Source: Alphaproteobacteria bacterium
GTDB taxonomy: Bacteria; Pseudomonadota; Alphaproteobacteria; UBA828
Length of the DNA: 64,000 nt
Assembly: GCA_963667785.2 (NCBI GenBank)
Contig: CAXXMU010000002.1
Location: 32,001-96,000 of the forward strand
Reading direction: 5' to 3'
Part shown: positions 40,956-59,725 of the stretch, piece after piece
Numbering within the stretch: position 1 is the first letter of the stretch
Layout: every line of letters starts with the position of its first letter
Translations under genes and position numbers: made by a program
The notes under the pieces: model-generated
What the model saw: the letters and a program-made list of their open reading frames with translations, nothing else
What the model was told of the DNA's origin: nothing
The model's database searches: none

Positions 40956-42086
40956 ATGGTAGGCCGGTTGCAGCGAGCGATTGAAGCCGATGTTCAGTCC
41001 GGCCTCTATGACGGAGCCGCGACGATCGTTGCAGTCGGCGGCGAGATCGCGTTCAACGAGACGATCGGATACGCCGATCGCGCCAACGAGACGCCGCTCC
41101 GCCATGACAGCGTCTTTCCGGTGTTCTCGATTTCGAAGGCACTGACCGCCGTTGCCTTGCTGCAACGCGTCGAACGCGGGGAGGCCAGACTGGATACACC
41201 GGTCTGCGAGGTGATTCCCGAGTTCGGCGTGAAGGGGAAGGCGCGCGCGACGCTCGGGCAGCTTCTCTGTCACACGGCCGGCGTGGCGCCCGGCTTTCCG
41301 GCCGTCCCCGCAGACAAGCAGGGCGATCTCAAGGCGGTGGTTGCCGCCGTCTGCGCCACGCCCGCGGTTTCGGTGCCGGGAGAGGAGGCGAGCTATTCGC
41401 AGATCATGGCGCACGCCGTGGCGGCGGAGTGTGTCCGGAGACTGGACGGAAACGGGCTTCGCTTCCGCGATATCGTGACACGCGACATTTGCGCGCCGCT
41501 CGGCATGGTGGACACGAGCCTCGGCATGCGTGCGGATCTCGCGTCCCGCGGCATTGTCCCCCGCTGCACCGATCGCAGCCCCGGGCTGTTCGATCCGGAC
41601 GCCCTCGTCGCGGCGGCGCAGGACATCATGGACCCTGCGCTCGACCACGAAATGCCCGCTGCCGGCTTCGTCTCGACGCTGAACGACATCTTTGCATTTA
41701 CTGAGGCGCTCCGGTGCGGGGGACGGCGCGACGACGCGCGCGTGCTCTCCCCTGCCATGGTTGCGTTCGCGACCAGGGTTCATACCGGGACCATGGTCAA
41801 CACCCAGTGGCATTTCGCCCGCGAAATGAAGGGCTGGCCCGCGTTCCCGGCCAATCTCGGACTCGGCTTCTTCATCCGTGGCGAGGGCATGATCCCCACG
41901 TACTTCGGGCATCTGTCGAGCCCGGAAACGTTCGGTGCCTTCGGTGCCGGTTCGACCAACATGTGGGTCGATCCGACGCGGGATATGACCATGATCTGCC
42001 TCACGACCGGCATTCTGGAAGAGACGAACAGCGCCGCTCGCTTTCAGCGACTCTCGGACATCGCAATCGCCGAATTCTACGGCTGA
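40956..42086 (+). CDS. Serine hydrolase, beta-lactamase class C / esterase family
   Basis: FSISK (SxxK), LLCHTAG, PG...SYS, PLGM.DT, S.ETFG..G.GS...WVDP. Confidence 0.88.
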   Translation: MVGRLQRAIEADVQSGLYDGAATIVAVGGEIAFNETIGYADRANETPLRHDSVFPVFSISKALTAVALLQRVERGEARLDTPVCEVIPEFGVKGKARATLGQLLCHTAGVAPGFPAVPADKQGDLKAVVAAVCATPAVSVPGEEASYSQIMAHAVAAECVRRLDGNGLRFRDIVTRDICAPLGMVDTSLGMRADLASRGIVPRCTDRSPGLFDPDALVAAAQDIMDPALDHEMPAAGFVSTLNDIFAFTEALRCGGRRDDARVLSPAMVAFATRVHTGTMVNTQWHFAREMKGWPAFPANLGLGFFIRGEGMIPTYFGHLSSPETFGAFGAGSTNMWVDPTRDMTMICLTTGILEETNSAARFQRLSDIAIAEFYG

Positions 42087-42803
42087 CGTGCGCAGACCGA
42101 TGTAAGACGAATGCGGTCGCCGCAGGTGTCGCAGCCAGTCATTTGCTTTGCGAAGATCATCAAGCGGCGCGGCGTTTCGTCGCGCAACGCGCGTTTACTG
42201 CGACACGATCGCCAGAGTACGGCCGAGCGGGAGGCCATTGTCCACGCTCAACAACACGCGAGCGCCGAAGGCGATGTCGGCACCGATCAGGGCAGCTTGC
42301 CGCCCGGACAGGTGAAGTTGATGGAGAGCACCTACCGCGGCGTCGTCTTGCTCGCGACCCTGAAGCGCGACGAAATGTTCCGCGACGGTCGTCACGAAGA
42401 GCACGGTCGAATGCTCGAGGACGCCAGAAAGTCGCAGTCGGAACTGTTCTCCGGCGAGTGAGCGGTCACCGATTGCCGTGCGCTTCGTCGACCGCGGCAG
42501 CAGGATGCTGCAGGACTTGCACGAAGAAGCGGCTCTGAGTATCGACCCAGCGGCGAACATCCGGACCGCGAGAGACCGCCTTGGCGGCATGCCGGGACTG
42601 TCCCACGGATTGTCGGCGTTCTCCTTCCAGCAGCCGTAAGCGGTTTGAAGCTACTTGCGTGCCGACTCGCGATAGCTCCCGGCGGGCCTGCGTTTGCCGA
42701 CGGTTAGCGGAAACCACTCTGACAGGTCTCGTAACCGAAATGCCTGCTGCTACATTCGATGCGTCCAAGCAATGGACGCAACCAACACGGCCTTCGACCA
42801 TGT

Positions 42804-44549
42804 TCATCGCACAGCAATTGAGCGTGCGAACTCGTCCGCCCCCGCGTCCGCCGCACGCCGGAAGGACTGCAACGCGTCGTCCAGCCCGTCTCCAGGGTAT
42901 CGATACTCGTCGGGTACCGAATCGTAGCGTGCCTGGGCTCGTTCAAACGAGGTCTGCCATTGGCTCGTGAATCCCTCCGTCTTCGAAACGCAACCCGAGG
43001 CCGTCTGCTGGATCATCTCCAACTCGCCCCTCAGAAAGCCCAGAAAGTCATGGATCGCGACCTGCTGACGGCTGATCTTCTCGAAGTGATAGCCCATGGC
43101 CGCCAGATAGATCGCCTCGGGAAGCATGTGGGGGTGTTTCTTGGAGACCTTGCCGATGAACTTCGAATAGGCAGGGAGCTGCCTGCGGGAGAGACGACGG
43201 CGAACGATCATGAAGGCTGCATCGATCTCGTTCCTGCTCCTGGGCTTTCGAAGATGCCGGACGGGCTTCAGGTGCCTGAACAGGGTCAGGCAGCGGCTGA
43301 AGTAATTCTCCAGGGTCGGATCGTAGAGTGTGGTTAGCACGCGTTCGTAGCCCTCGATCAAGGTGCCGTAACTCATCTCCGTCCTGAAGTTGAGTGGCAT
43401 GGCACTGGTTCCGAGTGGGGCCTCCAGCAGCCGGTTTTCCGACTTCAGGCGCTCGTACATGTCCGTGCCCTTCAAGGCGGTCAACAAATAGATGGGGGCC
43501 ACAGGAATCCCGGTCTCCTGGACAAATTTTATCTGGGCATCGAACACGCCCTCGTCATCGCTATCCAGACCCAGGATGAACCCGCCCTGGACCTGCATGC
43601 CGTGCTGCTGGATTTTTCGAATGGCGTGGAAGAGGAAGTTCTCCTGGGTTTTGCTGGTGTTTTGCTGCTTCTTGGTCTTGAGCAAGGCCTCGGGGTTGGG
43701 GGTTTCGATGCCGACGAACACGGAATCGAAGCCGGCCTCGATCATGGCATCCATCATCGCGTCCATCAGCGCCAGGTTCGCGCTCGCTTCCGTCATCAGG
43801 GTGAACGGATATCCCTTGGCCTTTTGCCACTCGGCGATCGCCGGCAGCAGGTTCAAGGCATCCCGCTTGTTGCCGATGAAGTTGTCGTCAACCAGAAAAA
43901 CCGGGCCTCGCCAGCCCAGGCGGTAGAGGGAATCAAGCTCCTCCACGACCTGTTCCGGCGACTTGGTGCGGGGCACGCGGCCGTAGAGCTTGATGATGTC
44001 GCAGAATTCGCAGTCGAATGGACATCCCCTGGAGAACTGCACGCTCATCGTGGCGTAGTTCTTCAAGTCGATGAGGTCGAAGCGGGGAACCGGCGTCCGG
44101 GTCACGTCCGGCTTCCGTGTTTCCCGCCAGAATTTCTTGGCCGTGCCGGCTTCCAGGTCCTGCAGGAAATCCGCAAAGATTTCCTCGGCCTCGTCCAGCA
44201 CGAAGTGGTCCACGCCCACGATCTCCTCGTGAAACGTGGTCGGATGAGGTCCCCCTGCAACCACCGGAACGCCTTTTCGGTTGCAACGCTCGATCACCGC
44301 GCGTAGCGACACATGTTGCGTGATCATCGTGGACGTGAACACGTAATCCGCCCACTCAAGGTCGGCGTCCTGCAAGGCGCCCACGTTCATGTCGACCACG
44401 CGGAGCGCATAGCTCGGAGGAAACAACGCGGCGATCGTCAGCAGTCCCAGGGGCGGGTGGGTCGCCTTGACCCCCGTCAGCTCCAGCGCGTGGTCGGCCC
44501 CCCAGTAGGTCGGAGGGTGTTCCGGGTAGACCAGCAGAGCGTTTGGCAC
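42804..44549 (-). CDS. B12-binding radical SAM protein (DUF4070 / HpnP-like), SwfC-like
   Basis: N-terminal PPLGLLTIAAL..VVAGGPH, SRGCPFDCEFC (CX3CX2C), FLVDDNFIGN, VFVGIET, GGFILGLD.D. GTG start with GGAGGAG RBS. Confidence 0.92.
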   Translation of the reverse strand: MPNALLVYPEHPPTYWGADHALELTGVKATHPPLGLLTIAALFPPSYALRVVDMNVGALQDADLEWADYVFTSTMITQHVSLRAVIERCNRKGVPVVAGGPHPTTFHEEIVGVDHFVLDEAEEIFADFLQDLEAGTAKKFWRETRKPDVTRTPVPRFDLIDLKNYATMSVQFSRGCPFDCEFCDIIKLYGRVPRTKSPEQVVEELDSLYRLGWRGPVFLVDDNFIGNKRDALNLLPAIAEWQKAKGYPFTLMTEASANLALMDAMMDAMIEAGFDSVFVGIETPNPEALLKTKKQQNTSKTQENFLFHAIRKIQQHGMQVQGGFILGLDSDDEGVFDAQIKFVQETGIPVAPIYLLTALKGTDMYERLKSENRLLEAPLGTSAMPLNFRTEMSYGTLIEGYERVLTTLYDPTLENYFSRCLTLFRHLKPVRHLRKPRSRNEIDAAFMIVRRRLSRRQLPAYSKFIGKVSKKHPHMLPEAIYLAAMGYHFEKISRQQVAIHDFLGFLRGELEMIQQTASGCVSKTEGFTSQWQTSFERAQARYDSVPDEYRYPGDGLDDALQSFRRAADAGADEFARSIAVR

Positions 44550-44869
44550 GACCGGGTTCTCCTCTCCTCCACCCTCACGTCCGGCGACCAGCTATCGCCG
44601 AGGGCATGTCTTCAGGCGACGTTGGCGAGACCATGTCCAGACTTTACGAATTGGGCCTCAGTGGAAGCCGTTCTTAGCGCTGGCAGGGCTCTCGGTACCA
44701 ACCGCCCGAGTATCGCGATTGAGCAGTCAATCCGCGAGCGAGAGGCGCCCCCTAACGCCTCTCGGAGAGCGCAAAGTAGCAGGAAAGTGTCCTTAGTGCC
44801 CTGCCGAGTACGCACAGGTATACTGAGTCCGCTCGACACACCCATCCCGTGCAACGTTCGGAACAGGCG

Positions 44870-46054
44870 ATGGCACAGGAAACGACAGAGCCCCAAGGTA
44901 GATCCGGCCGTCCCAAGTGGATGGGCTACGCGCAGCTGATCCTGATATTGGCCGCCGTCGGAGTGGCCCTCTACTTCGCACAGGCGCCGAGCCGCGTGGA
45001 GCGCGACCCGATTTCCGACATGGCGCTCGACCAGGCCAAGCCCACCGTCGCCGTGATTCAGTCGGTGCCGACCGAGCAGGCGCTGAGGGTCGACCTGACA
45101 GGAGGGGTCACGCTGCACGGAAACGTCAAGGTCACCTCCGAAGTCGGCGGCCGCGTGGTCTGGGTCTCGCCCAGTTTCCGGAACGGCGGGTCGATCGCCG
45201 CGAACGAGGCCATCATCAAGGTCGATCCGGCGGAGTACGAGCTCGAGCTCGAAGTTGCCGCCGCGAAGGTCGCAAAGGCGGATGCCCGGGTCCAGATCGA
45301 GAAGGCCAAGGCGGAGGAAAGCCTGGCCACTTTCGCACGCGAGAACCCCGGAGCCGACATTCCCGAGCGGGTGCACCGCGCGGCGTACATCGCGAAGGCG
45401 GAAGCCGTGCTCATGGAGGCGCAGGCCGAGATGAAGCTGGCGCAGCTCCGGCTCGACCGAACCGAGATATCCCTTCCGTTCGACGTCCGGGTCGCAGCGG
45501 CGGACATCGATGTCGGCCAGTTTGTCGGCCCCGCCGAGCTGGTCGGCCGTGCCTCGTCATTGGGGTCCGTCTACCGAACCGACGCGCTCCAGGTCAGAGC
45601 GCCCATCGAACAGGAGAGCTTGGCCTATCTCGCGCCGGCCATCGGTCGCTCCGCCACGGTTCGGACTGCGGCAGGAATATACGACGCCGTGGTGGAGCGC
45701 ACGTCCGCAATCATCGGCCCCAAGTCCCGTCTGGCGAGGGTCTTCCTGAAGTTCGCTGCGGCTCACCCGTCGGATACGCTGCCGATGCCCGGCTCGTTCG
45801 TGGAGGTCTCGATCGCAGGGCCTGTGCACGACAACGTGCTCGTGCTGCCGGAATCGGCCATGCAGGATCAGGGCAGCGTCTGGATTGTCGAGGGCGGCGC
45901 GCTGAAGTCCGTCACGCCGCGCACGCTGGGATACGCCGACGGCGGCGTGGTGGTGGAGGCGTTCGAGGTGGGCGAGGGCATCGTCGTCGGCTCCTTGCCG
46001 GGAGCGCGAGAGGGATTGGCCGTCGAGGTCAGCGCCGCGCAGGCGTCGGAATAG
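44870..46054 (+). CDS. RND efflux periplasmic adaptor (MFP)
   Basis: N-terminal TM anchor, EVGGRV..V, helical hairpin, L.RTEI..PF, VGQFV, PGSFVEV.I, LPESA. Confidence 0.9.
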   Translation: MAQETTEPQGRSGRPKWMGYAQLILILAAVGVALYFAQAPSRVERDPISDMALDQAKPTVAVIQSVPTEQALRVDLTGGVTLHGNVKVTSEVGGRVVWVSPSFRNGGSIAANEAIIKVDPAEYELELEVAAAKVAKADARVQIEKAKAEESLATFARENPGADIPERVHRAAYIAKAEAVLMEAQAEMKLAQLRLDRTEISLPFDVRVAAADIDVGQFVGPAELVGRASSLGSVYRTDALQVRAPIEQESLAYLAPAIGRSATVRTAAGIYDAVVERTSAIIGPKSRLARVFLKFAAAHPSDTLPMPGSFVEVSIAGPVHDNVLVLPESAMQDQGSVWIVEGGALKSVTPRTLGYADGGVVVEAFEVGEGIVVGSLPGAREGLAVEVSAAQASE

Positions 46055-46066
46055 CGGAGTCGGGCC

Positions 46067-49000
46067 ATGAGCATGACCGACGCCGGCAGCACCAACGCCG
46101 GGCCCGCGGCGCAGCCAGGCCCGACCGGCCTCACGTCGGGGCTGATCGCCTACTTCGCCGGCAACCGCGTTGCCGCCAACCTGCTGATGATTCTGCTGAT
46201 CGTCGGCGGCGTGCTTTCGGGGCTTCAGCTCATCGTCCAGTACTACCCGGATATCGAGGCGCGGCGGGCCGCCGTTTCGGTGCTGTATCCGGGCGCCGCG
46301 CCCCAGGAAGTCGAGGAGGACATCAACCGCCGCATCGAGGAAGCCGTCGTCGGGCTGCCGGGCGTCGAGCGCGTGGTGTCGACCGCAAGCCAGAGCCTCG
46401 GCAAGGTCACGGTAGAGATGGCGACCTTCGCGGATACCGACGCCGTCTTCAACGACATTCAGAGCGCCATCGACGGCATCGAGAACTTCCCGCCGGTCAG
46501 GGCGGAGCAGCCGGACGTCAGGCTGCTCAAGATCTCCCACGAGGTCATGACGCTGGCGGTCGTCTCGTCCAGTCTTTCCGAGGACGGACTGCGCCTCGCG
46601 GCGGAAGACCTGCGCGACAGGGTGCTGGCGCTGCCGTCGGTCTCTCAGGTGGGGCTGAAAGGCACCCGGGACCGTGAGATCACGATCGAGCTGAGCGAGG
46701 AGGAGCTGCGCCGCCACGGCCTCTCCATCGGCGAAGTGTCCAGAAAGGTCAGGCGGGCGTCCCTCAACCTCACCATGGGCGAGATACGGACGGGCACCGG
46801 CAGCGTGATCCTGCAGACCGTCGCCAAGAGGAGCGTCGGCCAGGATTTCCAGGACATTCCGCTGCTCACGCATAACGATGGCACGATCATGACGCTCGGC
46901 GACGTCGCCAGGATTCGCGACGGGTTCGTGGACGAGGAGGTGGTCACCGAGGTCAACGGCCATCCGGCGGTGCTGGTTCGCATCGATGCGACCGAGGAGC
47001 AGTCCGTCGTCGAGATGGCCGAGGAGATCAGGAATCTGCTCGCGGTCTATAGCCCGCCCGAAGGCGTGAGTGTCAGTATCTGGAACGACAACGCCAGCCC
47101 CATATTCGACCGGCTGCTGGAGATCGTGAAGAACGGGGCGATCGGCACGATCCTGGTGTTCATCAGCCTCGTTCTCGTCTTCGAGCTCCGCATCGCGTTG
47201 TGGATGACCGTCGGCATCCCCTTGTCGTTCGTGGGCTCGTTGCTCTTCTTCGACGCTGCAGACCTAACGCTCAATCTCGGCACGATTTTCGGCTTCTTCC
47301 TCCTGGTGGGCATCGTCGTGGACGATTCCGTCGTGGTCGGCGAAAGCATCGCGGCGGAACGCGAGAAGGGGAAGAATGCGCTCGACGCGGCGGTCTCGGG
47401 CGCGCGGGCCATGGTGGGTCCGCTCACCATCGGCGCCGTCACGACGATTCTGGCCTTCCTGCCATTCCTCTTCATCACGTCGCCCGCGTTCCAGATCGTG
47501 AACGTGTTCCCCTATGTCGCGATCCTCGTCTTGCTCGTCTCGCTGGTTGCGGCGTTCTTCATCCTCCCGGCGCATCTCTCGCACGGGAGGCGCTGGAGCC
47601 TCTCACCGCTGAGCGACGTGCAGACCCAGGTCGGAGGATGGCTGGACGAGGTGCGCGACAGGGTCGTGGCGCCTGCAGCCTCGTGGGCCGTGCGCAACGT
47701 CTGGCTGTCGATCGTCGGCGCACTCCTCGTTCTGGTCGCTGCCGTTCTGCTCCTCGGCTCCGATGCCGTTCGGATCGTCCTCTTCGACGAGAACCTGAGC
47801 AGCACCGACAACGTGCAGGCGGACATCTATCTGCCGGTGGGTGCGCCGTTCGAGGAGACGCTGGCTGCAGCCGACCGCTTCGTCGAGGCAGCGCACAGCC
47901 TCAACGACCGGCTGGAGGGCACCCCCGTCGACGCGGTGAGCATGATCGTCGGCAACATCGAGACAGGGCGGAAAGACGGGGAGAAGCTGAACAGCAGCCA
48001 TCTCGCCTCCGTGCGGCTGCATCTCAGCGACCAGGCCGATCGCAGCGCGAGCCCGCCCGAAGTCGAGCGAGCATGGCGCGAGGCCATCGGTTCCGTGACG
48101 AACCTGGAAAAGGCCGAATTCCGCTCCGGGCGCTTTGCCGCCAGGCCGAGCGTTTCCTACTCGCTCAAGCACGACCATATGGAGACGCTGAGAAGCGCGG
48201 CCGCGGAGCTGAGGGAGGGGATGGCGACCGTGCCGGGCATCTACGGCATCCATGATGACCTGGCGCCGGGCAAGCGCCACTTCGAGATTGAGCTGACCCC
48301 GGCAGGCAAGGCCGCAGGGCTGACGCCGGCACTGATCGGGACGCAGCTGCGCTCCAGCTTCCACGGCGTGGACGTCCAGCGCATCCAGAGGGGCCGCGAG
48401 GAAATCAACGTGGTGGTCAGGTATCCGGCCGAGCGGCGGCGCAGCCTGAGCGAGCTGGCCAGCGAACGGATCCAACGGCCGGGCGGCGGCGAAATCCCGC
48501 TCTCGCTGGTGGCGACGATCACCGAGAAGCGCGAGCCGGCGACGCTGACGCGGATCGACGGCAAGCGGGCGGCGCGCGTCAACGGGCGGGCGGACACTGC
48601 GGTGATCACGCCGATTCAGGCGCGGCAGGAGGTTCGCAACCAGGTCATTCCCGACCTTCTGGAGGCGTATCCCGGCCTTGCCATCGAGGTCGAAGCCGGC
48701 GCGCGGGACGAGAGCGACATGCTCGAGACGCTGGCGGTTCTCGTCCCCATCGTCCTGATCGCGATCTACGCCCTCATCGCGGCCTTCCTGCGCAGCTACT
48801 GGAAGCCGGTGATCGCGGTCGTGGGCATTCCCATCGCGTTCGCAGGCGCGATCGTGAGCCACTGGATACTCGGCTGGGATCTGACCACCATGTCGATCTT
48901 CGGCATGATCGCCGTCGGCGGCGTGGTCGTGAACGACGCCCTCGTGCTGCTGGACCGATACAACACGATCCGGCGGGACAATGCGACGATCCCCGCCATC

Positions 49001-49474: not shown

Positions 49475-52400
49475 ATGACGTCGCAGAGGAGAGAAAGCGA
49501 CGTCGCCATCGTGGGATACGGCCATCGCATGCCCGGCGGCATCCGCTCGGACTCCGATTTCTGGCGCCTACTCACCGAGCGCGAGATCGTCCAGGAGCCG
49601 GTAAGAGATCGTTACGGCAGAGGCCACCTGCCGATCGGGGAATTTTCAGGCCCGGGGCGCCTTGCCAGTCCCTGGGAAGGACTGATCCGCGACAGCGACG
49701 AGCTGCTCTTCGACCGCACGCTGTTCGGAATGTCCCACAACGAAATGATGAAGACGGAACCGCAGGTCAGGATGCTGCTGAACTGCGCGTGGGAGACGAT
49801 CGAGCATGCCGGCTGGGACTTCCATGCGCTGCGCAACAGCCCCACCGGAGTCTTCGTCGGGGCGCAGCTTCCGGCCGTGTCCAACTGGCGGCCCCTGCAT
49901 GGCGTCAACGAGTACTCCGTCACCAGCATCAGCGTGGCCATGTTGGCCAACCGGATCTCGTACCACTTCAACCTCATGGGGTCCTCGATCGCGTACTGCA
50001 CGGCCTGCTCCGCCGGGCTGAGCGCCCTGCATGCGGCGATGAACGCGCTCCTGTGCGGCGACTGCGATCAGGCGCTCGTCGGGTCCGTCACCTACTTGGG
50101 CAGCGCCAGGATGGGCAGCAGCTTCAACCTCATGGGGGTCATCAGCCCGGAAGGCAAGTGCCACTCCTTCGACGCCCAGGCCAACGGCTACATGCGTTCC
50201 GAAGGCGCCTTCGTCTTCGCGCTGAAGCCCCTGGTGGCGGCGGAGCGCGATGGGGACCCAATTCATGCCGTGATCGAGGCGAGCGCGGTCAACGCAGCCG
50301 GCGCGGCGGACGATGCCGTCGGCCTGCCCCCGGGCCGCAACATCACCGCGCCGACCCGTCACGCACAGGTCGAGCTGATGCGCACCGCAGCCGCCCGTGC
50401 CGGGCGCACTGCCGGGGAGTTCGACTACCTCGAAGCCCATGCAACGGGCACCGTGGTGGGCGATCGCATCGAAGGCAACGCCATCGCGGAAGCGTTCAGC
50501 GGCTTCGATCGCGAGGTGCCGCTTCGGGTCTCGAGCGTCAAGAGCAACGTCGGGCATATGGAAGCGGCCGCATTCCATTGCGCGATGCTGAAGGTCGTCC
50601 TGATGATGCAACGGCGCACCTTTGCGCCGACATCGAAGAATCACCTGGTGCCGAATCCCGAGATCGACTTCGACCGCTGCCCGATGCGAGTGCAGACGGA
50701 AGTCGAGCCCTTTCCCGAACATCCCGTCGTCGTCGGTATCAACTCCTTCGGCTTCGGTGGCGCCAACGGGCACTGCGTGGTGCGCGAGTACCGCCCGGCG
50801 CGTCCCCGCATCTGGTCGGTGGCCCTGGCCCCGGAGGCCGGCTACGTCGTTCCCCTGTCGGCGCGCAATGCGAAGTCGCTCGCCCGGACCGCGGGGCAGC
50901 TTCGCGAGATGCTCGACCGGCGGCCTATGGATCTCTACACGCTGGCCGGCAATCTCAGCCGCCGTCGCACCCATTTCTCCACGCGCGCCGCGCTTGCGGT
51001 GCGCGACCTGCAGGAGCTCGAAGAGGGGCTCGATGCCGTTGCGGAGGAACGCGCCCCGGTCGCGACCGTAGAGGAGGGCGAGCCGCGGCTGACGATGGTG
51101 TTCGCCGGACAGGGCACGCAGTGGGCCGGTTGCGGCCGCGCGCTCTACGGCGCCGACCCCGTGTTTCGCCGCGTCATCGACGCGATCGAGGCGCACTGGC
51201 GCGAACATTCGGACGTTTCGCTGCGCGAGGCCTGCTTCTCCGCGCCGCAGTCGGAGCTCGACGAATGCGAGTTGGCTCAGCCCGTGATCTTCATGCTCCA
51301 GTGCGCGCTCGTCGAATTGTTCAAGACCTGGGGGGTCTATCCGGACTGCGTGGTCGGCCACAGCTCCGGCGAGGTGGCCGCGGCCTACGCCTGCGGAGCG
51401 CTTTCCCTGGGAGACGCGACGCGACTGGTCTTCCATCGCGCCACGTTGCAGCAACGCACCGCCGGGTCGGGCCGGATGCTGGCGATCGGCCTTGATCGTT
51501 GCGGCGTCGAGGAGTTGCTGGACACCCTCGATGTTCCCTTCCGGCTCGATGCGAACCGACCGGTCCAGGTCGAGATCGCCTGCGAGAATGCGCCTGCCAA
51601 TACCGTCATTTGCGGCAGCGAAACCGCCTTGCAGCCTGTCATCGAGGAGCTCGACCGGCGCAACCTGCAGAATCGGCTGGTTCCCGGAAACATCGCCTTT
51701 CACTCCCGGGCGATGGACGCCATCCGGGAGGACGTGGCGGCGGCGCTGTCCTTCCTTGATGAGCGCGCCTTCGACCTCGACGTTCCCTTCGTTTCATCGG
51801 TGACCGGCTGCCTCACCGAGCGCCTCGACAGCGCGTACTGGTGGTCGAACATCCGCCAGCCCGTGCGCTTTGCCGCCGCGATGGACATCGTCAAGCGCGA
51901 CCACCGGCCGCACGCGGTGCTCGAGCTTGCGCCGCACTGCGCGCTGCAGCCCGTCATCGCCCAATGCCTGGCCGACGGTGTGTCCACCCCGACCTCGATC
52001 GCGACATTCATGCGCGACGGCGATACGCGCAACGGTTTTCTCGAATCGCTGGGGGCTTTGTTCAGAGCCGGCGTGACCCTCGACTTCGCCTCCCGGTATC
52101 CGCGCCCCGAGCCCCTCCCTCACCTGCTGCCGGGACATCCGAGGGACGAGGAGAAGAAGGCGGATACCACGGCGGACGACGAGTTCCACAATCAGGCAGC
52201 CGAGTACTCTCACGGCCCGCTCGTCGGTCACCGGATCCCGTGCGATCACCTGATGTTCGAGGCGCGTTTCTCTGACCGGGCCTTTCCGTGGGCCGCCGAC
52301 CACGTGGTCCATCACGCGGCGATCATGCCGGCGACGGGCTACATCGAGATGGTTCTCGAGGCGTTCGGCGGGGTGCCGGTGCACTTCGACGTGATCGAGT

Positions 52401-55400
52401 TTCTTCAGCCCTGCCCGGTCCCGAGAACGCCGGTGCGCCTGCAGACGGTGCTACATCCGGTCGCCAATTCCCCGTCCGAATTCACCTTCGTCATCTCCAC
52501 CCGGCCCTACGGCGGGGAAAGCAGGAGCGAGCCGCACTGTCGGGGCAAGGTGCGACTGTTGAGCGACCCGCCGGCGCCAGACACTCCGGGCAGGCTCGAG
52601 GACGTCGACCGCTCCGGCTACGCGCCAGTCGAGAACGGCTCAGGAGACGAACTCTACGAATGCTTCGAGGCAGTGCTGGGCGATACGTACCGCTACGGTC
52701 CCCACTGCAGAAACATCCGGCAGATCCAGCGCCACGTGTCGACCCGGTCCTATCTGGTCGATCTCGAAGTCGACGAAAGCCTGTGGGCCGACGGCCTAGA
52801 GGAGGGGTACGTCTGCTACCCCCCGCTGATCGACGGCGCATTTCAGGCGTTTCTCTACAGCCTGTTGGGTACGTCCGATCACCTGTGCATTCCACGGCGA
52901 ATCGAGCAAATGACGTTTCTCGGCGCGGCGGCGGGACCGCGGCTGACCTGTCTCCTGAGGGATCCTCCGGATCGCGCCCTGGATATCGACGACAAGGGCC
53001 AGTTCAGCCCTTTGGAGGGCGAGCGGCTGTCGGGCAGCATCAGCTTCTACGACCAGTCCAATGGAGCCCTCGTTGCCTACGTCCAGAAATACATCCATTT
53101 CGACTCGAACCTGAAAAGGGGGGACCTGCCCCACAGCAAGCACCGGATCGTCTGGCAGCCCAAGTTCCTGCCGAACGCCCAGGTGTTCGCCGACCGGCTG
53201 CCCGCCGGCGACATCGATCCCGTGGCGTTGATCGCCGCTCTTGAACGGCGCGTTGACGGCGAGGGCCGCGCGTGTCGCATCCTGGAGTTCGCCGGGTGCA
53301 GGGAGCCCGAGCAGACCATGCTCGAGCAGTGCGTCGGGCACCTGTCGAGTGCCGGAGGGCACGGCGAGTTCTGGCTCGTCAGCGACGATGAAGAAACCGC
53401 CGGGAATAACTACGAGGCGTTTCACGCGGCCGACGCCGCTCTGCGATTCGAATGCATCGACCCGGCCGAGCGCCAGGCGATCGGTCTCGACGAGGGTCTG
53501 CTGCGTCCGGGTGCGGTGGAGGTGCTCCTTCTGCATCGCGATACGGCCGCATTCTCCCCCGCCGACTGGGAGTTCTGGAGACGCCTGCTGGTGGCCGGAG
53601 GCCTGGCGCTGGTCTCTCACTCCGAAGGCGACGTACTCGAACCGGGCGCCGGATGGGCCGTCGTTCGCGCCGCGCCGCGCAGCACCCTGCTTCAGGCCCC
53701 GCAGTCGTGGCCGGACTCCCTGAACGCGACGGCTGTTCCGACGCCCCGTTGGGTGGTGGGTGAAGCGCACAGCCCGGCGCAGGACTGGGCCTCCCTGCTC
53801 GACGATCCGGAGGTGTACCCGATCGACTTTCAGCCCCTCGTCTGCGGTGAGGACCACGATATCGAGGAGTGGCCACGGGCGGCGGACGTGCAGGCTGTCG
53901 ACTTCTTCTGTGGTCGTGATCCGCAGGACCCCACCGGCGAGGGGGTGGTGTCGGCTCTCGTCGCCCTCGTCAGGGCACTGGTGTCGTACCGCACCGAGCA
54001 TGCGCATTCCCGGTGCCGCGTCACCGTTGTGACCCAGGGGGCCGCCTTCGATGTTCACGACCCGCGCGGGTGCGGTTTGTGGGGCGCGGTTCGCAGCATG
54101 GCGATCGAGGTGGGCGAGGACGCCGGTATCGACTTCCGTCAGGTGGATCTCGGTGCCGACGACGACCTGAAGACCCTGGCCTCGCTCGCTCGCTGCGATC
54201 TGCGCGATCGGGAGATCGCGGTGCGGGAGGGCCGCCTGTGGGTGCCCCGCATAGAGAGCATTCGTGACCATGCTCCCTGCGTCCCCGCCGGCGACGAAAC
54301 CACCTACCGCCTGTGCCTGGACAACCCGGGGCAGATCGGCGGGTTGCAGATGAAGACGTACGAACCCGCGGCGCTCGGGCCGGGCATGGTGGAGATCGAC
54401 GTGAAGGCAGCGGCGCTCAACTTCCGCGATGTCATGGTGACCTTGGGACTGCTGCCCTCGGCAGCCTACGAACGCTCCGCGCTGGGGCTGGAGGTCGGCA
54501 TGGAAGCAAGTGGAGTCGTGCGCCGGGTCGGCGAGGGTGTGGACCATTGCCTGGCCGGCGACGAGGTGGTTTTCACCAAGGGCGGGTGTATCGCCAATCG
54601 GGCAGTCGTCGACGCCCCCCTTGTGTTTTCCAAGCCCGCCCGCCTCGACATGGAGCAAGCCGCGTCTTCGCTGTCGGTCTACCTCACCGCGTACTATGCC
54701 CTTGTTCACCTGGCTCGGCTCTCCGAAGGTCAGAGTGTCCTCATTCACTCGGCCATGGGCGGCGTGGGGCAGGCCGCCATCGCGCTTGCCAGGCGCGCAG
54801 GGGCCACGATCTACGCAACGGCGGGAAGCGATGCCAAGCGCGAGCGGCTTCTCGAGCTCGGTGCGAGTGCGGCGTTCGATTCGCACAGCGAGAATTGGTA
54901 CGACGAGCTGATGGAAGCGACACGCGGCGAGGGTGTCGACGTGGTGCTGAATTCCCTCGCCGGCCGTCATCTCGCGCTGTGCCTGGAGGCTCTGCGTCCG
55001 GGCGGTTGGCATTGCGAGATTGGGAAGGTCGACATCTACTCCGACAACCCGCTAGGCCTCTACGTCTTCCGCAAGAACCTGCGCTTCGCGGCGGTCGACG
55101 TGGATCGCCTGATGGTCGATGACCCCTGGCTCCTGCGCCGACTCTCAGAGACCTGTCTCGACCTGCTCGAACGGGGCGAACTGCCGCCGTTGCCGATCAC
55201 GGTCTACGACTATGAGGACTACGCCAAGGCCCTGCGCTTGATGACCAGCGGCAAGCATCAGGGGAAGCTGGTGCTCAGGGCCCCGCCGGCCGGCGTTCAT
55301 CCGCGGTTCCCGATCGTCGATCGGCGTCCACTGCTCGACCCCGATGCGACCTACCTCGTGAGCGGCGGCCTCGGCGGATTCGGCCTGTCCCTGCTGCCCT

Positions 55401-56530
55401 ATCTCGTATCAATCGGAGCCCGCCATCTCACGTTGATGGATCGGGACCCCGAGCGCCGCCGCAACGCCGACTGGGTGAGCGAATCGACCGCGCTGCAATA
55501 CATGGACTGGGAGTGCGAGATCGACATCGTCGTTGGCGATGTCGCGATTGCGGCGGACGTTGAGCGCTGCGTCGCCTGCCTGCGCCGGCCGCTCAAGGGC
55601 GTCTTTCACTTCGCCGGTGTGCTCGATGACCGTCTGCTCGACACCATGTCGCGGGACTCCGTGGAGACGGTATTCGCTCCCAAGGCTACCGGCGCGCTGA
55701 ATCTTCACCGGGCGACCGCCGGGCATCCGCTCGACCTCTTCGTCATGGCCTCGTCCACTGCCTCAACCTTCGGCAATCCTGGACAGATCAACTACAGCGC
55801 CGCCAACGCTTACCTCGATGGCCTCGCAGTGTGGCGCCGCAGGCAGGGTTTGCCGGCGCTGTCCTACAACATTGCGGCGGTCGCCGAGGTCGGTATGGCC
55901 TCGCGAAACCACCATGTGCTGCGCATGCTGAGGATGGTCGGCATGCCCCCGGTGAGCGTTCACTTCGCAATCGCCAACCTCGACTACACGCTGCGCAGAC
56001 TGCCCGACAGCGACCACCTGGTGACCGCGCTGTTCAAGCGGGTTCCGTTGACCGTCGACTCTGCGGACTACATGCGCATCGGTCGCCTGATGAGCAACAA
56101 CGATGCGTTCCAGGGTCATTCCGACGACCGACTCACGCTCGAAACCGTGATGACGCAGATTGCCGAGAAGGTCGCCGAGCTATGCGGCCACGATGAAGGC
56201 GACATGGACGAGCCGTTGGCGAGCTTCGGATTCAATTCGATCTCCGTTGCCGAGCTCGTGGCGTATCTTCAGAATCAGTTCAACTTCCAGGTCAGCGCTC
56301 TGGAACTGATGACCACCGCCACCTGCCAGTCCTTGGCGCATGCGATCGTCCACAGAGCGGAACAGCCCGAGGAGGTGGAAGGCGAGACCGATGCGGTGGA
56401 GAGCGCGGACGCGCCTCTCTCCGGGCGGCTCCGCGGACGCCGAAGGCCGTCGGAATTCGCAAGCGTCCTGGAAGATCACTTTCCGCCAGCGCCCGGTGCG
56501 AGCCGAAACGAAATGACGACGGAGTCTTGA
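49475..56530 (+). CDS. Mono-modular highly reducing type I PKS/FAS (KS-AT-DH-pseudoMT-ER-KR-ACP), SwfA-like
   Basis: KS: TACSAG, EAHATGT, KSNVGH, NSFGFGG. AT: GQG.QW, GHSSGE, AFHS. DH: DHVVHHAAIMP, IDGAFQ. ER: LNFRD, LIHSAMGGVG. KR: GGLGGFG, AGVLDD, GQINYSAAN. ACP: GFNS. No TE domain. Confidence 0.95.
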   Translation: MTSQRRESDVAIVGYGHRMPGGIRSDSDFWRLLTEREIVQEPVRDRYGRGHLPIGEFSGPGRLASPWEGLIRDSDELLFDRTLFGMSHNEMMKTEPQVRMLLNCAWETIEHAGWDFHALRNSPTGVFVGAQLPAVSNWRPLHGVNEYSVTSISVAMLANRISYHFNLMGSSIAYCTACSAGLSALHAAMNALLCGDCDQALVGSVTYLGSARMGSSFNLMGVISPEGKCHSFDAQANGYMRSEGAFVFALKPLVAAERDGDPIHAVIEASAVNAAGAADDAVGLPPGRNITAPTRHAQVELMRTAAARAGRTAGEFDYLEAHATGTVVGDRIEGNAIAEAFSGFDREVPLRVSSVKSNVGHMEAAAFHCAMLKVVLMMQRRTFAPTSKNHLVPNPEIDFDRCPMRVQTEVEPFPEHPVVVGINSFGFGGANGHCVVREYRPARPRIWSVALAPEAGYVVPLSARNAKSLARTAGQLREMLDRRPMDLYTLAGNLSRRRTHFSTRAALAVRDLQELEEGLDAVAEERAPVATVEEGEPRLTMVFAGQGTQWAGCGRALYGADPVFRRVIDAIEAHWREHSDVSLREACFSAPQSELDECELAQPVIFMLQCALVELFKTWGVYPDCVVGHSSGEVAAAYACGALSLGDATRLVFHRATLQQRTAGSGRMLAIGLDRCGVEELLDTLDVPFRLDANRPVQVEIACENAPANTVICGSETALQPVIEELDRRNLQNRLVPGNIAFHSRAMDAIREDVAAALSFLDERAFDLDVPFVSSVTGCLTERLDSAYWWSNIRQPVRFAAAMDIVKRDHRPHAVLELAPHCALQPVIAQCLADGVSTPTSIATFMRDGDTRNGFLESLGALFRAGVTLDFASRYPRPEPLPHLLPGHPRDEEKKADTTADDEFHNQAAEYSHGPLVGHRIPCDHLMFEARFSDRAFPWAADHVVHHAAIMPATGYIEMVLEAFGGVPVHFDVIEFLQPCPVPRTPVRLQTVLHPVANSPSEFTFVISTRPYGGESRSEPHCRGKVRLLSDPPAPDTPGRLEDVDRSGYAPVENGSGDELYECFEAVLGDTYRYGPHCRNIRQIQRHVSTRSYLVDLEVDESLWADGLEEGYVCYPPLIDGAFQAFLYSLLGTSDHLCIPRRIEQMTFLGAAAGPRLTCLLRDPPDRALDIDDKGQFSPLEGERLSGSISFYDQSNGALVAYVQKYIHFDSNLKRGDLPHSKHRIVWQPKFLPNAQVFADRLPAGDIDPVALIAALERRVDGEGRACRILEFAGCREPEQTMLEQCVGHLSSAGGHGEFWLVSDDEETAGNNYEAFHAADAALRFECIDPAERQAIGLDEGLLRPGAVEVLLLHRDTAAFSPADWEFWRRLLVAGGLALVSHSEGDVLEPGAGWAVVRAAPRSTLLQAPQSWPDSLNATAVPTPRWVVGEAHSPAQDWASLLDDPEVYPIDFQPLVCGEDHDIEEWPRAADVQAVDFFCGRDPQDPTGEGVVSALVALVRALVSYRTEHAHSRCRVTVVTQGAAFDVHDPRGCGLWGAVRSMAIEVGEDAGIDFRQVDLGADDDLKTLASLARCDLRDREIAVREGRLWVPRIESIRDHAPCVPAGDETTYRLCLDNPGQIGGLQMKTYEPAALGPGMVEIDVKAAALNFRDVMVTLGLLPSAAYERSALGLEVGMEASGVVRRVGEGVDHCLAGDEVVFTKGGCIANRAVVDAPLVFSKPARLDMEQAASSLSVYLTAYYALVHLARLSEGQSVLIHSAMGGVGQAAIALARRAGATIYATAGSDAKRERLLELGASAAFDSHSENWYDELMEATRGEGVDVVLNSLAGRHLALCLEALRPGGWHCEIGKVDIYSDNPLGLYVFRKNLRFAAVDVDRLMVDDPWLLRRLSETCLDLLERGELPPLPITVYDYEDYAKALRLMTSGKHQGKLVLRAPPAGVHPRFPIVDRRPLLDPDATYLVSGGLGGFGLSLLPYLVSIGARHLTLMDRDPERRRNADWVSESTALQYMDWECEIDIVVGDVAIAADVERCVACLRRPLKGVFHFAGVLDDRLLDTMSRDSVETVFAPKATGALNLHRATAGHPLDLFVMASSTASTFGNPGQINYSAANAYLDGLAVWRRRQGLPALSYNIAAVAEVGMASRNHHVLRMLRMVGMPPVSVHFAIANLDYTLRRLPDSDHLVTALFKRVPLTVDSADYMRIGRLMSNNDAFQGHSDDRLTLETVMTQIAEKVAELCGHDEGDMDEPLASFGFNSISVAELVAYLQNQFNFQVSALELMTTATCQSLAHAIVHRAEQPEEVEGETDAVESADAPLSGRLRGRRRPSEFASVLEDHFPPAPGASRNEMTTES

Positions 56531-56790
56531 CCATTCGCCAGCCCGGCCCGGATTCCATACCGACCAGGGCACCGGCACATTACAAAAAACTACATGCCTC
56601 CATGCGGCGCGTTGTCGGGAAGGTGGCACTCATGGATCGGACACGGCCTCCTCCGCAGCGTCGCACCCCTGGTTCTGCAGACCCGAGCATTCCCGGGGTG
56701 CTCGGTTTCCGATCCGCGGCCCAGCAGTCGCAGCCCGCGGCGACCGGGTGGGCTCAGGTTCGGCGCCCCCGGTAGCGAGCGAGACACGAG

Positions 56791-59286
56791 ATGGCTGAAA
56801 CACTCCCCGCTTCCCGCGTGGTGCCCTCCCTTGCTGGTCGCATGCCGATGCAGTGCCAGCGCGACCTCGACGGTTTGCGCAGTTTCATTCATTCCACCAT
56901 CGGGGAGGAATCGCCGGCCGAACCGGTATCTGCAAACGACTTCCGGGAAGTGCTGCTGACCGGCGCCACCGGGTTCGTGGGCCGCTTTCTGTTGCGCGAT
57001 CTCCTGCTGCAAGACGATAGCCTCGTCGTGCATTGCCTGGTCCGCGCGGACGGCGTCGAGCATGGCTTCGCGCGGATACGCGCCGCCCTGGAGCACGCCG
57101 AGATCTGGGACGACGCATTCGGGCCGCGCATCCGGGTCGTGGCCGGGGATATCCGCGCGCCTCGATTGGGTCTGAGCGATGCGAAATTCGACGATCTGTG
57201 CCGACGCATCGACGCGGTCTACCACCTCGCCGCCGACCTCTCCCTCGTGTCGTCCTACGCCTCGATACGCGACGTGAACGCGACCAGTCTTCGCAATGTG
57301 CTCGCGTTGTGCCTGCGAACGCGTTTCAAGCACGTCTTCTACGCTTCCACGATGGCCGTTTTCCCCGAGTACTTCTGCAATTTCTCGAACGAATTCAGTC
57401 GCAGTCGTATCGGACATCACATGCAGCCCGATCTGGCAACTATGAAGAGGCTGTTGCCGCTCGGTTTCCTTGGATACCCGTGGAGCAAGCTCGTTTCCGA
57501 GCAGGTCCTGCTCTTCGCGAACGCGGCCGGACTGCCGGTGGCGATTTTTCGCCTGCCGCAGACGGGGATGTCCAGCACAGGTTTCACGAACGCGAGCGCC
57601 GTCGCGCTCTCCATCTACCTCGCGGCGATACAGATCGAAATGGCTCCCGCCGGCTTCTCCATACAGAGCTGTGCCGAGCCGGTGGATACGCTCACCGAGA
57701 TATGCGCCGCAATCTCGGCGAATCCCGAGCGGCGGTTCACGATCTACCATTGCTGCGATCCGCAACCTCCGCATGACGATTTCGGGCCGGCCGATTTCGG
57801 ACTCTACTTGCGCGAAGTTCCATACGAGACGTTCAAGCGTGCCTGCGAGGCGCTTGGAGAGCGCTCTCCGCTGCACGGGCTGTGGACCCTGCTCGATTTC
57901 TTCGCATCGTACTGGTTCGCGGACGGCGAGGCCCGCGGCGTCGCTCCGGTCGACGATCGCGCCATTCGCGAGGACTGTCCCTTTCCTGTCCGGTGGCCGG
58001 CATTGCTCCTCCGGCATTCGCGCTCCTACGACTGGATACGGCGACAGGGCGATGGGTGGCCCTATCCGGTGCCGAAAGCCCGCCTGGACCTCGACCGCCT
58101 GATGGCGCAGGCCGAGGGTTACGCCGAACGCGTCGGCGTTCCCTTCGACCACACGTTTCCCGCGTGGATGCGTACGGGATTCCAGCGCCTTGTGGAGGTA
58201 CTCAGCGCACCACAGGCCGGATTGCTGGAGGAGAGACGCCCGCATCTCGTCTACGAACTGAACCGCCAGCTTCGCAACAATGCGGCGCTCGCCCGCGAGT
58301 GGCAGCAGCACCCCGAGATCGAGCGCGAGGAGATCGTGCGTCCGGTGTTCATCGTGGGGATCAATCGAACCGGCACCACGTTTCTGCACCGCATGATGGC
58401 GCGCGACGAAAGGTTCTGGACGCTGCGACGCTACGAGCTGTCGGAGCCGGTCCTGTCAAGCGGGGCGTACGATACCGTGGCGCGCACCGCCGGCGACCCG
58501 CGCCGACTTCACGTGAAGGAGGTGCTGGACTCCATTCGGGTCGTGGATCAGTTCGCCGAAATGCACCGCATCGACATCGACGAGCCCGAGGAGGATTTCC
58601 CGATCCTCAGGCAGTCCTTCGCATCCTGGGTCAACGCCGTCGCGTACTACGTGCCGGACTACCGCAGCTGGCTTGCCGCCACCGGTTCGGACAATGCCTA
58701 CGCCTATCACCGTCGCGTCATGCGGCACTTCACCTGGCAGCGCCGGCAGCGCGAGCGCGACGCCCGGAAGGCTTGGTTGTTCAAGATGCCCTTCCATCTC
58801 ATGGAGCTGGAGGCACTGCTCGCGAATTACCCGGATGCGGTTTTCATCCAGACCCATCGCGAGCCCACGCAGTTCATGGGATCGTGGAACAGCCTTGTGG
58901 ACCGGATACGCTCCGTCTCCATCGAGCCGCGCCCGCGGCACGACACCGGTGCCGAGCAGCTGGACCTGATGAGCGGCATGCTCAACGAGGCGATGCGGTT
59001 CCGGGCGTCGTGCCCCGAGCTCGAGGCGCGCTGGGTCGATGTGAACTACCGCGACCTGGTCGAGAACCCGATGGGGGTGGTCAGCGAAATTTACGAACGG
59101 TTCGATTGGCGGCTCGAGCCGGCGGCTACGGCCGAAATGGAGAGTTGGCTCGAACGGCAGGCGGAACAGCGTCGGCAAGAGCCGCCGCATCGATACAACC
59201 TGGAGGACTTCGGCCTCAACACAGAACGGGTCTCAGCCGCATTTGCGCCGTATCGGGAGTTCGTTGGCTCGCGGAAGATTGCGTAG
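56791..59286 (+). CDS. Thioester reductase (R) - sulfotransferase fusion, SwfB-like
   Basis: R domain: VLLTGATGFVG, CLVRA, GDI...LGL, YHLAA, YAST, GYPWSK (YxxxK). ST domain: PVFIVGINRTGTTFLH (PAPS loop), WLFKMP.H, FIQTHREP, V.Y.DLV.NP. Confidence 0.92.
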   Translation: MAETLPASRVVPSLAGRMPMQCQRDLDGLRSFIHSTIGEESPAEPVSANDFREVLLTGATGFVGRFLLRDLLLQDDSLVVHCLVRADGVEHGFARIRAALEHAEIWDDAFGPRIRVVAGDIRAPRLGLSDAKFDDLCRRIDAVYHLAADLSLVSSYASIRDVNATSLRNVLALCLRTRFKHVFYASTMAVFPEYFCNFSNEFSRSRIGHHMQPDLATMKRLLPLGFLGYPWSKLVSEQVLLFANAAGLPVAIFRLPQTGMSSTGFTNASAVALSIYLAAIQIEMAPAGFSIQSCAEPVDTLTEICAAISANPERRFTIYHCCDPQPPHDDFGPADFGLYLREVPYETFKRACEALGERSPLHGLWTLLDFFASYWFADGEARGVAPVDDRAIREDCPFPVRWPALLLRHSRSYDWIRRQGDGWPYPVPKARLDLDRLMAQAEGYAERVGVPFDHTFPAWMRTGFQRLVEVLSAPQAGLLEERRPHLVYELNRQLRNNAALAREWQQHPEIEREEIVRPVFIVGINRTGTTFLHRMMARDERFWTLRRYELSEPVLSSGAYDTVARTAGDPRRLHVKEVLDSIRVVDQFAEMHRIDIDEPEEDFPILRQSFASWVNAVAYYVPDYRSWLAATGSDNAYAYHRRVMRHFTWQRRQRERDARKAWLFKMPFHLMELEALLANYPDAVFIQTHREPTQFMGSWNSLVDRIRSVSIEPRPRHDTGAEQLDLMSGMLNEAMRFRASCPELEARWVDVNYRDLVENPMGVVSEIYERFDWRLEPAATAEMESWLERQAEQRRQEPPHRYNLEDFGLNTERVSAAFAPYREFVGSRKIA

Positions 59287-59712: not shown

Positions 59713-59725
59713 GCCCTGTCGCGAG

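Follow-up and report, generated by a model that had tools for sequence, protein, structure and literature searches.

Sequence comparison points to a swf gene cluster in a mobile cassette, with an accessory efflux pair, within a tRNA-Lys island of an alphaproteobacterium

Here, we analyse a stretch of 64,000 nucleotides (the window) from an alphaproteobacterial genome assembly (GCA_963667785.2, contig CAXXMU010000002.1, positions 32,001 to 96,000 of the forward strand), in which six genes lie on an island bounded by copies of a tRNA-Lys sequence. Five of them make up a 16.5-kb cassette that holds the gene trio of the swf clusters, a family of polyketide synthase (PKS) clusters known from sponge microbiomes, together with the two genes of an efflux pair. 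An earlier note on the same DNA had assigned all six genes to one pathway for an exported alkyl sulfate lipid. Listing of open reading frames (ORFs) and Pfam scans confirm that the six genes are real and intact where that note had placed them:

40956-42086 (+), PF00144 serine hydrolase, beta-lactamase or family VIII esterase-like (Pfam E = 1.6e-55), with SISK as its SxxK motif
42804-44549 (-), swfC, with three Pfam domains (B12-binding, Radical_SAM and DUF4070) and a CX3CX2C motif
44849-46054 (+), HlyD-type membrane fusion protein (MFP), a periplasmic adaptor matching HlyD_3, its hydrophobic N-terminus read as a membrane anchor
46067-49222 (+), resistance-nodulation-division (RND) permease with full-length ACR_tran (positions 2-1020 of 1021)
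49475-56530 (+), swfA, a monomodular, fully reducing type I PKS/fatty acid synthase (FAS) of 2351 aa with the Pfam domain order KS-AT-DH-ER-KR-ACP and without a thioesterase (TE)
56791-59286 (+), swfB, 831 aa, with the Pfam domains NAD_binding_4 (thioester reductase, R) and Sulfotransfer_3 (sulfotransferase, ST, of the type using 3'-phosphoadenosine 5'-phosphosulfate, PAPS)
42860-59375 (no strand), swf cassette with swfC, MFP, RND, swfA and swfB, 16.5 kb in common with the same-genus genome G001/G027

The MFP and RND genes are 12 bp apart, and swfB starts 260 bp past the stop of swfA. No NCBIfam model reached its cut-off with any of the six proteins, the MFP scoring 89 bits with TIGR01730 against a cut-off of 94.9. 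Promoter and terminator scans stayed at chance level (1 found versus 1.9 expected, and 10 versus 8.2).

The swf family was defined by Della Sala et al. (2013, PMC3908369), cited here and below from excerpts of that paper, by a single-module SwfA with the order KS-AT-DH-ER-KR-ACP and without TE, an adjoining R-ST protein SwfB, and an optional B12 radical SAM protein SwfC with a CX3CX2C motif. Hallmarks of SwfA are I or V for the second Q of DPQQR and HATGT for HGTGT in the KS domain, and IAFH, GHSSGE and the signature QCALVEL in the AT domain; a further criterion is more than 58% identity to, and a KS clade in common with, the published SwfA/B/C proteins (PMC3908369). Read against these hallmarks, the translated window PKS contains EPQVR, HATGT, QCALVEL, GHSSGE and IAFH, and the domain order without TE, the KS and AT motifs, the adjacent R-ST protein and the CX3CX2C motif of SwfC all agree with the definition. 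The presence of all published SwfA signature motifs in the window PKS argues that the region is almost certainly a true swf cluster, as the earlier note had proposed from the gene trio; the likeness to published SwfA is one of described motifs, order and sizes. The table of PMC3908369 gives 2361 aa for SwfA and 832 aa for SwfB, compared with 2351 and 831 aa in the window.

The fosmids PS11G3 and PSA11D7 of the same study share with the window the gene trio, the domain order, the KS and AT motifs and CX3CX2C, and integrase genes lie near swf in PS11G3 (PMC3908369). The window differs from both in having RND and MFP genes directly upstream, a host genome context and tRNA-Lys repeats. The swfC gene is optional in published swf clusters and in the related loci described below alike, one cluster of 2013 being without it. 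The PKSs of the related loci have retained the hallmarks to a large extent, namely HATGT in 59/59, IAFH in 62/62, GHSSGE in 61/62, QCALVE in 52/62 and PQ[IV]R in 38/59, and the canonical PQQR and HGTGT occur in 0/59. Among solved structures, SwfA is nearest to mycocerosic acid synthase (MAS; 1.9e-216), followed by Pks16 and animal FAS, which agrees with the FAS-like character described in PMC3908369. Loci of Nitrospirota, Latescibacterota, Acidobacteriota and Tectomicrobia encode R-ST proteins 55-61% and PKSs 61-71% identical to those of the window, and these four groups are reported to carry swf in the excerpted literature of 2022 and 2023.

The family is far wider than this genome. A scan of one genome per species yielded 213 swf loci, and all locus counts given here use the 80 of these 213 that were listed, with about 10 kb visible on each side of the R-ST gene. 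With R-ST fusions encoded at 213 loci of species-representative genomes, the host context that the earlier note had presented as a novelty of the window is not special. All 80 listed loci are from metagenome-assembled genomes (MAGs), and they belong to Alphaproteobacteria, Paracoccaceae, Gammaproteobacteria, Nitrospirota, Acidobacteriota, Latescibacterota, Spirochaetia, Gemmatimonadota, Tectimicrobiota and others. The R-ST query had 1098 matches among the scored candidates, and identity to it is 60% or more throughout the best 120, of which 119 are of near-equal length. A PKS gene adjoins the R-ST gene in 73 loci; the remaining seven end within about 2.2 kb upstream. In a FastTree phylogeny of 78 R-ST rows, from which two rows whose best match covers less than 95% of the query were omitted, phyla are freely intermixed, which fits the statement in excerpts of PMC9426513 that swf-like families "appear to be independent of bacterial taxonomy".

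Within the order to which the window belongs, swf was found in 11/49 genomes, all of them of the same genus as the window. This genus holds two swf lineages. Ten of its genomes carry a type with R-ST proteins 60-63% identical to that of the window, and the window's own type is restricted, within the genus, to the window and one relative (G001/G027, 95% identity). The latter carries both types on one chromosome, with R-ST proteins 95% (locus L003) and 61% (locus L060) identical to the window protein. In the R-ST tree, the window and its G001/G027 counterpart group with three Paracoccaceae/Boseongicola MAG rows (support 100), apart from the 60-63% type; these three rows are 86-89% identical to the window at the DNA level. 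Part of the PKS/R-ST stretch was also present in 20 rows of sequencing runs from 10 studies, of which 10 are labelled sponge metagenome, 2 coral reef metagenome and 8 with coded organism names, and an association with sponges is thereby apparent at the level of run labels.

The boundaries of the island are marked by the following features:

40053-40117 (no strand), left direct repeat, consisting of a displaced copy of the tRNA-Lys 3' end (47 nt) and 18 nt of downstream flank
40118-40918 (no strand), low-GC non-coding arm without a Pfam match
about 59437-59523 (-), C-terminal remnant of an IS66 transposase, 29 aa (PF13817, E = 1.1e-10, residues 88-116 of ORF 59233-59784 (-))
59637-59712 (-), tRNA-Lys (UUU) gene found with ARAGORN; the right direct repeat is at 59619-59683

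The two 65-nt direct repeats are 91% identical, their last 47 nt being identical and corresponding to the 3' 47 nt of the tRNA-Lys gene, and the left repeat is 92-98% identical to the tRNA-Lys 3' region of same-genus relatives. GC content is 0.60-0.68 inside and 0.69-0.75 outside. The tRNA-Lys island proposed in the earlier note is supported by this repeat and by the GC drop. The sole trace of a mobile element on the island is the IS66 remnant, which sits between the end of the cassette and the tRNA-Lys gene.

Comparison with G001/G027 delimits the cassette more narrowly than the repeats do. Nucleotide identity to the copy in that genome is 86-93% across 42860-59375, and homology ends at 59375 in G001 and at 59373 in the Paracoccaceae loci L006 and L007. 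Contigs from DNA runs (X1, X3) span the junctions at positions 42086, 42860 and 59375, although the window itself possibly stems from one of the two runs and the support is then not independent. The segment 42860-44554, which contains swfC, is inverted in the window relative to G001/G027, where all five genes are co-directional; the divergent orientation of the radical SAM gene, to which the earlier note had drawn attention, thus holds for the window and not for its nearest relative. No convincing inverted repeat flanking this segment was found, the lone pair having 22-nt arms that are 77% complementary and lie inside the gene. The G001/G027 cassette comes without the hydrolase and without tRNA-Lys, and no tRNA was found within 18 kb on either side of it. 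It is flanked by a gene for a 1443-aa TrwC relaxase on one side (L087:7225-11556 (-)) and by genes for a tyrosine integrase, a ResIII helicase and an AEP-TOTE protein (a conflict-system primase) on the other (L003:13447-18209); these surroundings are typical of an integrative conjugative or mobilisable element. The shared extent 42860-59375 and the relaxase/integrase setting in G001/G027 together argue that the 16.5-kb swfC-MFP-RND-swfA-swfB cassette is, as far as genome comparison can tell, a mobile unit.

The island around this cassette has a history of its own. The junction of tRNA-Lys and hisZ is conserved at 81-86% in same-genus genomes. On the far side of the tRNA, each relative has different content; sequence similarity breaks off at the tRNA end, and the genes of the left flank are located elsewhere. 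Partial copies of the 3' half of tRNA-Lys occur 9-26 kb from tRNA-Lys/hisZ in four relatives (G008, G009, G012 and G013), which suggests that this locus is an insertion hot spot occupied by different islands in different species. Bases 7-364 of the low-GC arm match one relative at 81%, and in G017 and G009 the arm stretch does not intervene between Rieske genes and hydrolase. Because pieces of it are dispersed in relatives, the arm (40118-40918) is probably the scar of an integrative element; for this spacer and the one at 42125-42859, searches found only short dispersed matches in relatives and, apart from the spacers themselves, none in the genome of the window. One 90-nt piece of the arm (window 40393-40482) has six copies in G017 at 74% identity and may be a small repeated element. 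The left flank (36840-40008) consists of a gene for an MttB-family methyltransferase (-), followed by a Rieske/VanA-type oxygenase gene and a small Rieske-domain ORF. The MttB and Rieske genes are at separate places in relatives, and local synteny in the genus is therefore low. Taken together, the comparisons depict the island as composite and decayed, with a horizontally acquired cassette inside it, in an uncultured, GC-rich alphaproteobacterium.

The two genes between swfC and swfA are associated with swf beyond the window. Of the parts of a tripartite RND system, the full-length permease and an adjacent periplasmic adaptor are present; in a search that covered the island only, no third transporter gene, for an outer-membrane factor, was found between the repeats. 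RND or MFP relatives adjoin swf in 17/80 loci and in four arrangements (upstream co-directional in 7, downstream convergent in 5, downstream co-directional in 2 and upstream divergent in 3). The RND proteins next to swf are 46-91% identical to that of the window, whose best paralogue in its own genome reaches 30%. To explain the distribution of pump adjacency over the 78 rows of the R-ST tree, 13 or more changes of state are required. In the genus, where RND orthologues are 82-93% identical, both swf and pump are present in 11 genomes, a truncated RND only in one (G017), an R-ST fragment only in one (G008) and neither in eight, two of which are only 62-67% complete. Presence or absence of the pump tracks that of swf in 19/21 of these genomes, and 11 of the 13 with either hold both. 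The second swf cluster of G001/G027 has a convergent RND/MFP pair that is 85% identical to that of the window at the DNA level, while its PKS is only 75% identical, a difference which hints that the pump module was exchanged between swf lineages. Judged by this distribution, the pump is an accessory of some swf lineages and not a core gene, and in the lineage of the window it is probably tied to swf in function. The words efflux, RND and AcrB have 0 occurrences in the texts of PMC3908369, PMC9426513 and PMC10227082; supplementary swf figures (Fig. S1 of PMC9426513, Fig. S13 of PMC10227082) might show pump genes.

Coupling of PKS, reductase and sulfotransferase is apparent from the make-up of SwfB and its homologues. 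The Rossmann motif, Y229/K233, the RTGTT loop, H592, R690 and S698 are invariant in 19 sequences, and we take these positions to be catalytic or PAPS-binding. The best solved match of the R domain (residues 45-349) is MxaA (1e-39), presumably an alcohol-forming reductase, and the ST domain is nearest to PDB entries 2zq5 (2.7e-36) and 2z6v, annotated as "putative uncharacterized protein", which we assume to be mycobacterial sulfotransferases. The genome of the window encodes an adenosine 5'-phosphosulfate (APS) kinase, two phosphopantetheinyl transferases (PPTases) and CobS. R and ST are fused in each of the best 120 near-length homologues. In addition, 22 long proteins (about 2900-3300 aa) cover at least 96% of the R-ST query and represent natural single-chain fusions of SwfA and SwfB. 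One of them, P0124 (3197 aa, source name Williamsia sp. MAG), has the order KS-AT-DH-ER-KR-R-ST at residue positions close to those of the two window proteins; its ACP (PF00550) appears only in the precomputed Pfam list and was missed by our own Pfam run. These natural fusions point to an R domain that acts on the chain held by the ACP of SwfA and to an ST domain that would act afterwards. Two fusions have Actinomycetota source names (Williamsia sp. and Streptosporangiaceae), and the swf system is therefore not confined to sponge symbionts.

Several known systems share parts of this layout. At the sulfolipid-1 (SL-1) locus of M. tuberculosis, a PKS occurs together with the RND-type transporter MmpL8 and a sulfotransferase. 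The logic of a PKS lipid, sulfation and an RND-family transporter is common to both; however, the sulfate of SL-1 is on trehalose and not on the chain, and in swf the R-ST protein replaces acyl transfer. Iterative PKSs of the MAS/Pks2 type are fully reducing and monomodular like SwfA, and Pks2 is the best NCBIfam match of SwfA, but the score is 874 bits against a cut-off of 2400 and SwfA is therefore not a Pks2 member. Furthermore, the AT motifs of SwfA indicate malonyl and not methylmalonyl units, following excerpts of PMC3908369. The R domain has the short-chain dehydrogenase/reductase (SDR) fold in common with terminal thioester reductases of the MxaA type, and the coccidian TgTR converts octanoyl-CoA to octanol in vitro according to an excerpted source. 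In contrast to these, SwfB is a free-standing R-ST protein, known here from its sequence; contiguous R-ST was otherwise reported only in coccidian FAS, as far as the excerpts of PMC3908369 go. The off-loading ST-TE of CurM and olefin synthases also couples a PAPS-type sulfotransferase to PKS release, but in swf the ST follows a reductase instead of preceding a thioesterase and is of the Sulfotransfer_3 family. No TE domain was found in the window PKS, in the R-ST protein or in the fused P0124, in disagreement with a CurM-type ST-TE.

SwfC is encoded in 48/80 loci, and this scatter marks it, by gene content, as an optional tailoring gene of swf. It shares the layout of B12-binding, radical SAM and DUF4070 domains with HpnP, the hopanoid C-2 methylase, and with "HpnP-like" proteins (excerpts of PMC10697835), and it was nearest to HpnP in the 2013 tree (excerpts of PMC3908369). 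Unlike HpnP, it has no hopanoid context in the window. The available parts of PMC10697835 describe the activity of HpnP-like proteins outside the HpnP clade as unknown. PDB matches of swfC are weak. By analogy, the balance tips slightly towards SwfC being a C-methylase.

It is tempting to combine these genes into one pathway. SwfA would iteratively use malonyl units to build a saturated acyl-ACP, from which the R domain of SwfB would reductively release the chain, most likely as a primary alcohol by four-electron reduction. The ST domain would then move sulfate from PAPS to this alcohol (1-O-sulfation), giving a long-chain alkyl sulfate, and SwfC, where present, might methylate an unactivated carbon as an optional step, from which we infer a methyl-branched product in such cases. 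In lineages that carry the pump, RND and MFP would expel the detergent-like anion or shield the cell from it. RND pumps protect bacteria from dodecyl sulfate. The same alkyl sulfate product was proposed by the authors of the 2013 study (excerpts of PMC3908369), and later papers of 2022 and 2023, in the parts at hand, call the product unknown, in line with the earlier note. A literature search found neither a swf product nor a link between swf and a pump, its coverage being thin for subscription journals. A primary alkyl sulfate as product has, in our view, about even chances. As a whole, we consider a swf cluster in a mobile cassette with an accessory pump, and with this chemistry as its most likely reading, to be the probable and best explanation of the locus.

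A number of findings, concerning the island, the tailoring enzyme, expression and the pump, weigh against this explanation. An integrase family was found in no ORF scanned within the island, and searches with the right and left flanks found no clean empty site in same-genus relatives; since synteny is too scrambled for such a site, insertion is inferred from the repeat, the GC content and the foreign relatives only. The swfC gene is missing from 32/80 loci and, at E <= 1e-20, from 3/5 whole genomes searched. It reaches no curated NCBIfam cut-off, with 57 bits versus 650 for HpnR and 54 versus 578 for HpnJ, and its AlphaFold2 model from a 17-row alignment (mean predicted local distance difference test score, pLDDT, 61; predicted template modelling score, pTM, 0.38) is too poor to use. 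Contigs of the metatranscriptome X20, the sole RNA evidence, extend over 29/30 bins of the region, but 333/508 of them are only 90-95% alike and carry-over of DNA is possible; they represent relatives in an RNA library and not transcription of the window copy. Expression of a swf cluster in E. coli BAP1 gave no new metabolite, as reported in the excerpts of PMC3908369.

For the pump, the same kind of evidence leads to the alternative that RND and MFP are a general-purpose efflux system, a passenger of the cassette without any part in handling the swf product. The pump was not seen in 63/80 loci; in these, the visible sequence extends only about 3 kb beyond the PKS on its upstream side, and the count of presences is a lower bound. 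Five chromosomes with swf from other phyla (Nitrospirales, Latescibacterota, Spirochaetia, Acidobacteriota and Longimicrobiales) gave no RND or MFP match above 35% identity, and none adjacent to swf. In 7 of the 11 genus genomes with both, pump and swf are not adjacent, and these genomes are kin, such that the co-occurrence count overstates independence. A travelling pump would also suit the lack of an outer-membrane factor on the island and the truncated RND that G017 keeps without R-ST. On the other hand, it is a single orthologue group, far above paralogue level, that stands beside swf in four arrangements and in several phyla, and both the repeated changes of state on the R-ST tree and the shared presence and absence in the genus speak for more than common transport. 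We therefore regard a mere passenger as unlikely. What remains of the likely dedicated exporter of the earlier note is an association in some lineages, carried by the adjacent loci and the genus genomes; as a general feature of swf it fails on the five chromosomes of other phyla.

Returning to the alkyl sulfate pathway, the product might instead not be a primary alkyl sulfate, if R stops at the aldehyde or if ST sulfates a leftover secondary hydroxyl or another acceptor, with the aldehyde or alcohol being processed elsewhere. Whether an R domain yields aldehyde or alcohol is unreadable from its sequence (excerpts of bioRxiv 10.1101/2023.05.23.541938), which also counts against our explanation, and iterative PKSs may use their reductive domains optionally (excerpts of PMC3908369). 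According to the same excerpts no alkyl sulfates are known as widespread in sponges, and a second, stand-alone PF13469 sulfotransferase is encoded in the genome of the window. Yet R and ST are fused in all of the best 120 homologues and joined to the PKS in the 22 longer proteins, as fits two consecutive steps on one released chain, and the solved R domain nearest to that of SwfB is the presumably alcohol-forming MxaA. A different product is, on this evidence, quite unlikely. Still less probable, and in our judgement very unlikely, is that sulfation serves activation only, with sulfate as a leaving group as in CurM and olefin synthases, or to make the alkyl chain transferable, and that the final alkene, ether or alkylated molecule is without sulfate. 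The CurM precedent was raised in PMC3908369 (excerpts), and a sulfate-free product would explain why sulfated lipids were not found in sponges, a failure mentioned there too. Against it stand the absence of a TE after ST, both in the window and in the fused forms, and the absence of a further transferase conserved in the loci; among the six window proteins tested only PKS, R-ST, radical SAM and RND/MFP recur, and other neighbours were not systematically surveyed.

The hydrolase does not belong to the alkyl sulfate pathway preferred here. Relatives of it occur in 0/80 swf loci, and it lies outside the cassette that is up to 93% identical in G001/G027. Orthologues with 91-93% identity are present in five genomes of the same genus (G017, G009, G007, G008 and G016), of which only G009 has a full R-ST, located on a different contig from the hydrolase. 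G007 and G016 are without R-ST and without the pump, G017 is without R-ST, and in G008 the R-ST is reduced to a fragment containing a stop codon. Moreover, in G017 and G009 the hydrolase follows at about 70 bp after the Rieske genes, which in the window end at 40008 and are separated from the hydrolase by 906 bp made up of the displaced tRNA-Lys half and the low-GC arm. The hydrolase may have been captured in the lineage of the window, or the 906 bp may have been lost in the relatives. Immediately upstream of the hydrolase in loci L103 and L104, the short Rieske-hydrolase spacer contains the initial 11 nt of the tRNA-Lys repeat; this could be due to chance, a scar or a secondary attachment site. 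From its occurrence, the PF00144 hydrolase is very probably a resident neighbour gene unrelated to the swf pathway. The statement of the earlier note that every intact gene of the island fits one pathway does not survive these results, nor does a co-occurrence of the hydrolase with swf homologues. That all six genes form one dedicated pathway on a single imported unit is highly improbable in spite of their common position between the two tRNA-Lys repeats and the lowered GC of the hydrolase region (0.62-0.64), given the 0/80 loci, the G001/G027 cassette, the orthologues in genomes with neither R-ST nor pump or without a full R-ST, and the proximity to the Rieske genes in G017 and G009.

Three further observations concern the surroundings. 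A second low-GC stretch of the window (9510-14275, GC 0.60-0.65) holds an ABC transporter operon with a TOBE-domain ATPase, a solute-binding protein and two permeases. A further region encoding a type I PKS in the genome of the window (G000:C6, about 930123-939890) is 31-35% identical to SwfA. The stand-alone sulfotransferase ORF (PF13469, Sulfotransfer_3) is located at G000:C6:1063662-1064582 (L002:1477-3180, -) and encodes 567 aa with 29% identity to the ST half of SwfB.

The swf family itself is already known, and the alkyl sulfate pathway is the proposal of the authors of 2013. New, and modest, are the defined mobile cassette, the conjugative-type setting in the sister genome, the accessory efflux pair, the PKS-R-ST fusions and the exclusion of the hydrolase. 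Two PKS families predominate in sponge microbiomes. Swf is one of these and has been without a known product since 2013; the window copy is one of hundreds. It is intriguing, if doubtful, to propose that swf and its own RND/MFP pair form a self-contained mobile module that makes and pumps out an optionally methyl-branched alkyl sulfate akin to sodium dodecyl sulfate (SDS), moving between sponge symbionts on conjugative elements and tRNA islands, with the pump being shuffled between two swf lineages. If true, a bacterial pathway to a primary alkyl sulfate surfactant would thereby be defined for the first time, and a product could be assigned to one of the orphan clusters that are most widespread in sponge microbiomes. 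The comparison of loci defines a minimal mobile cassette, for which the hydrolase is dispensable in expression constructs, and the natural fusions of SwfA and SwfB may be easier to study. The link to a pump in some lineages is a hint that the product acts on membranes and is exported, and it offers a possible reason for failure or toxicity of expression in E. coli.

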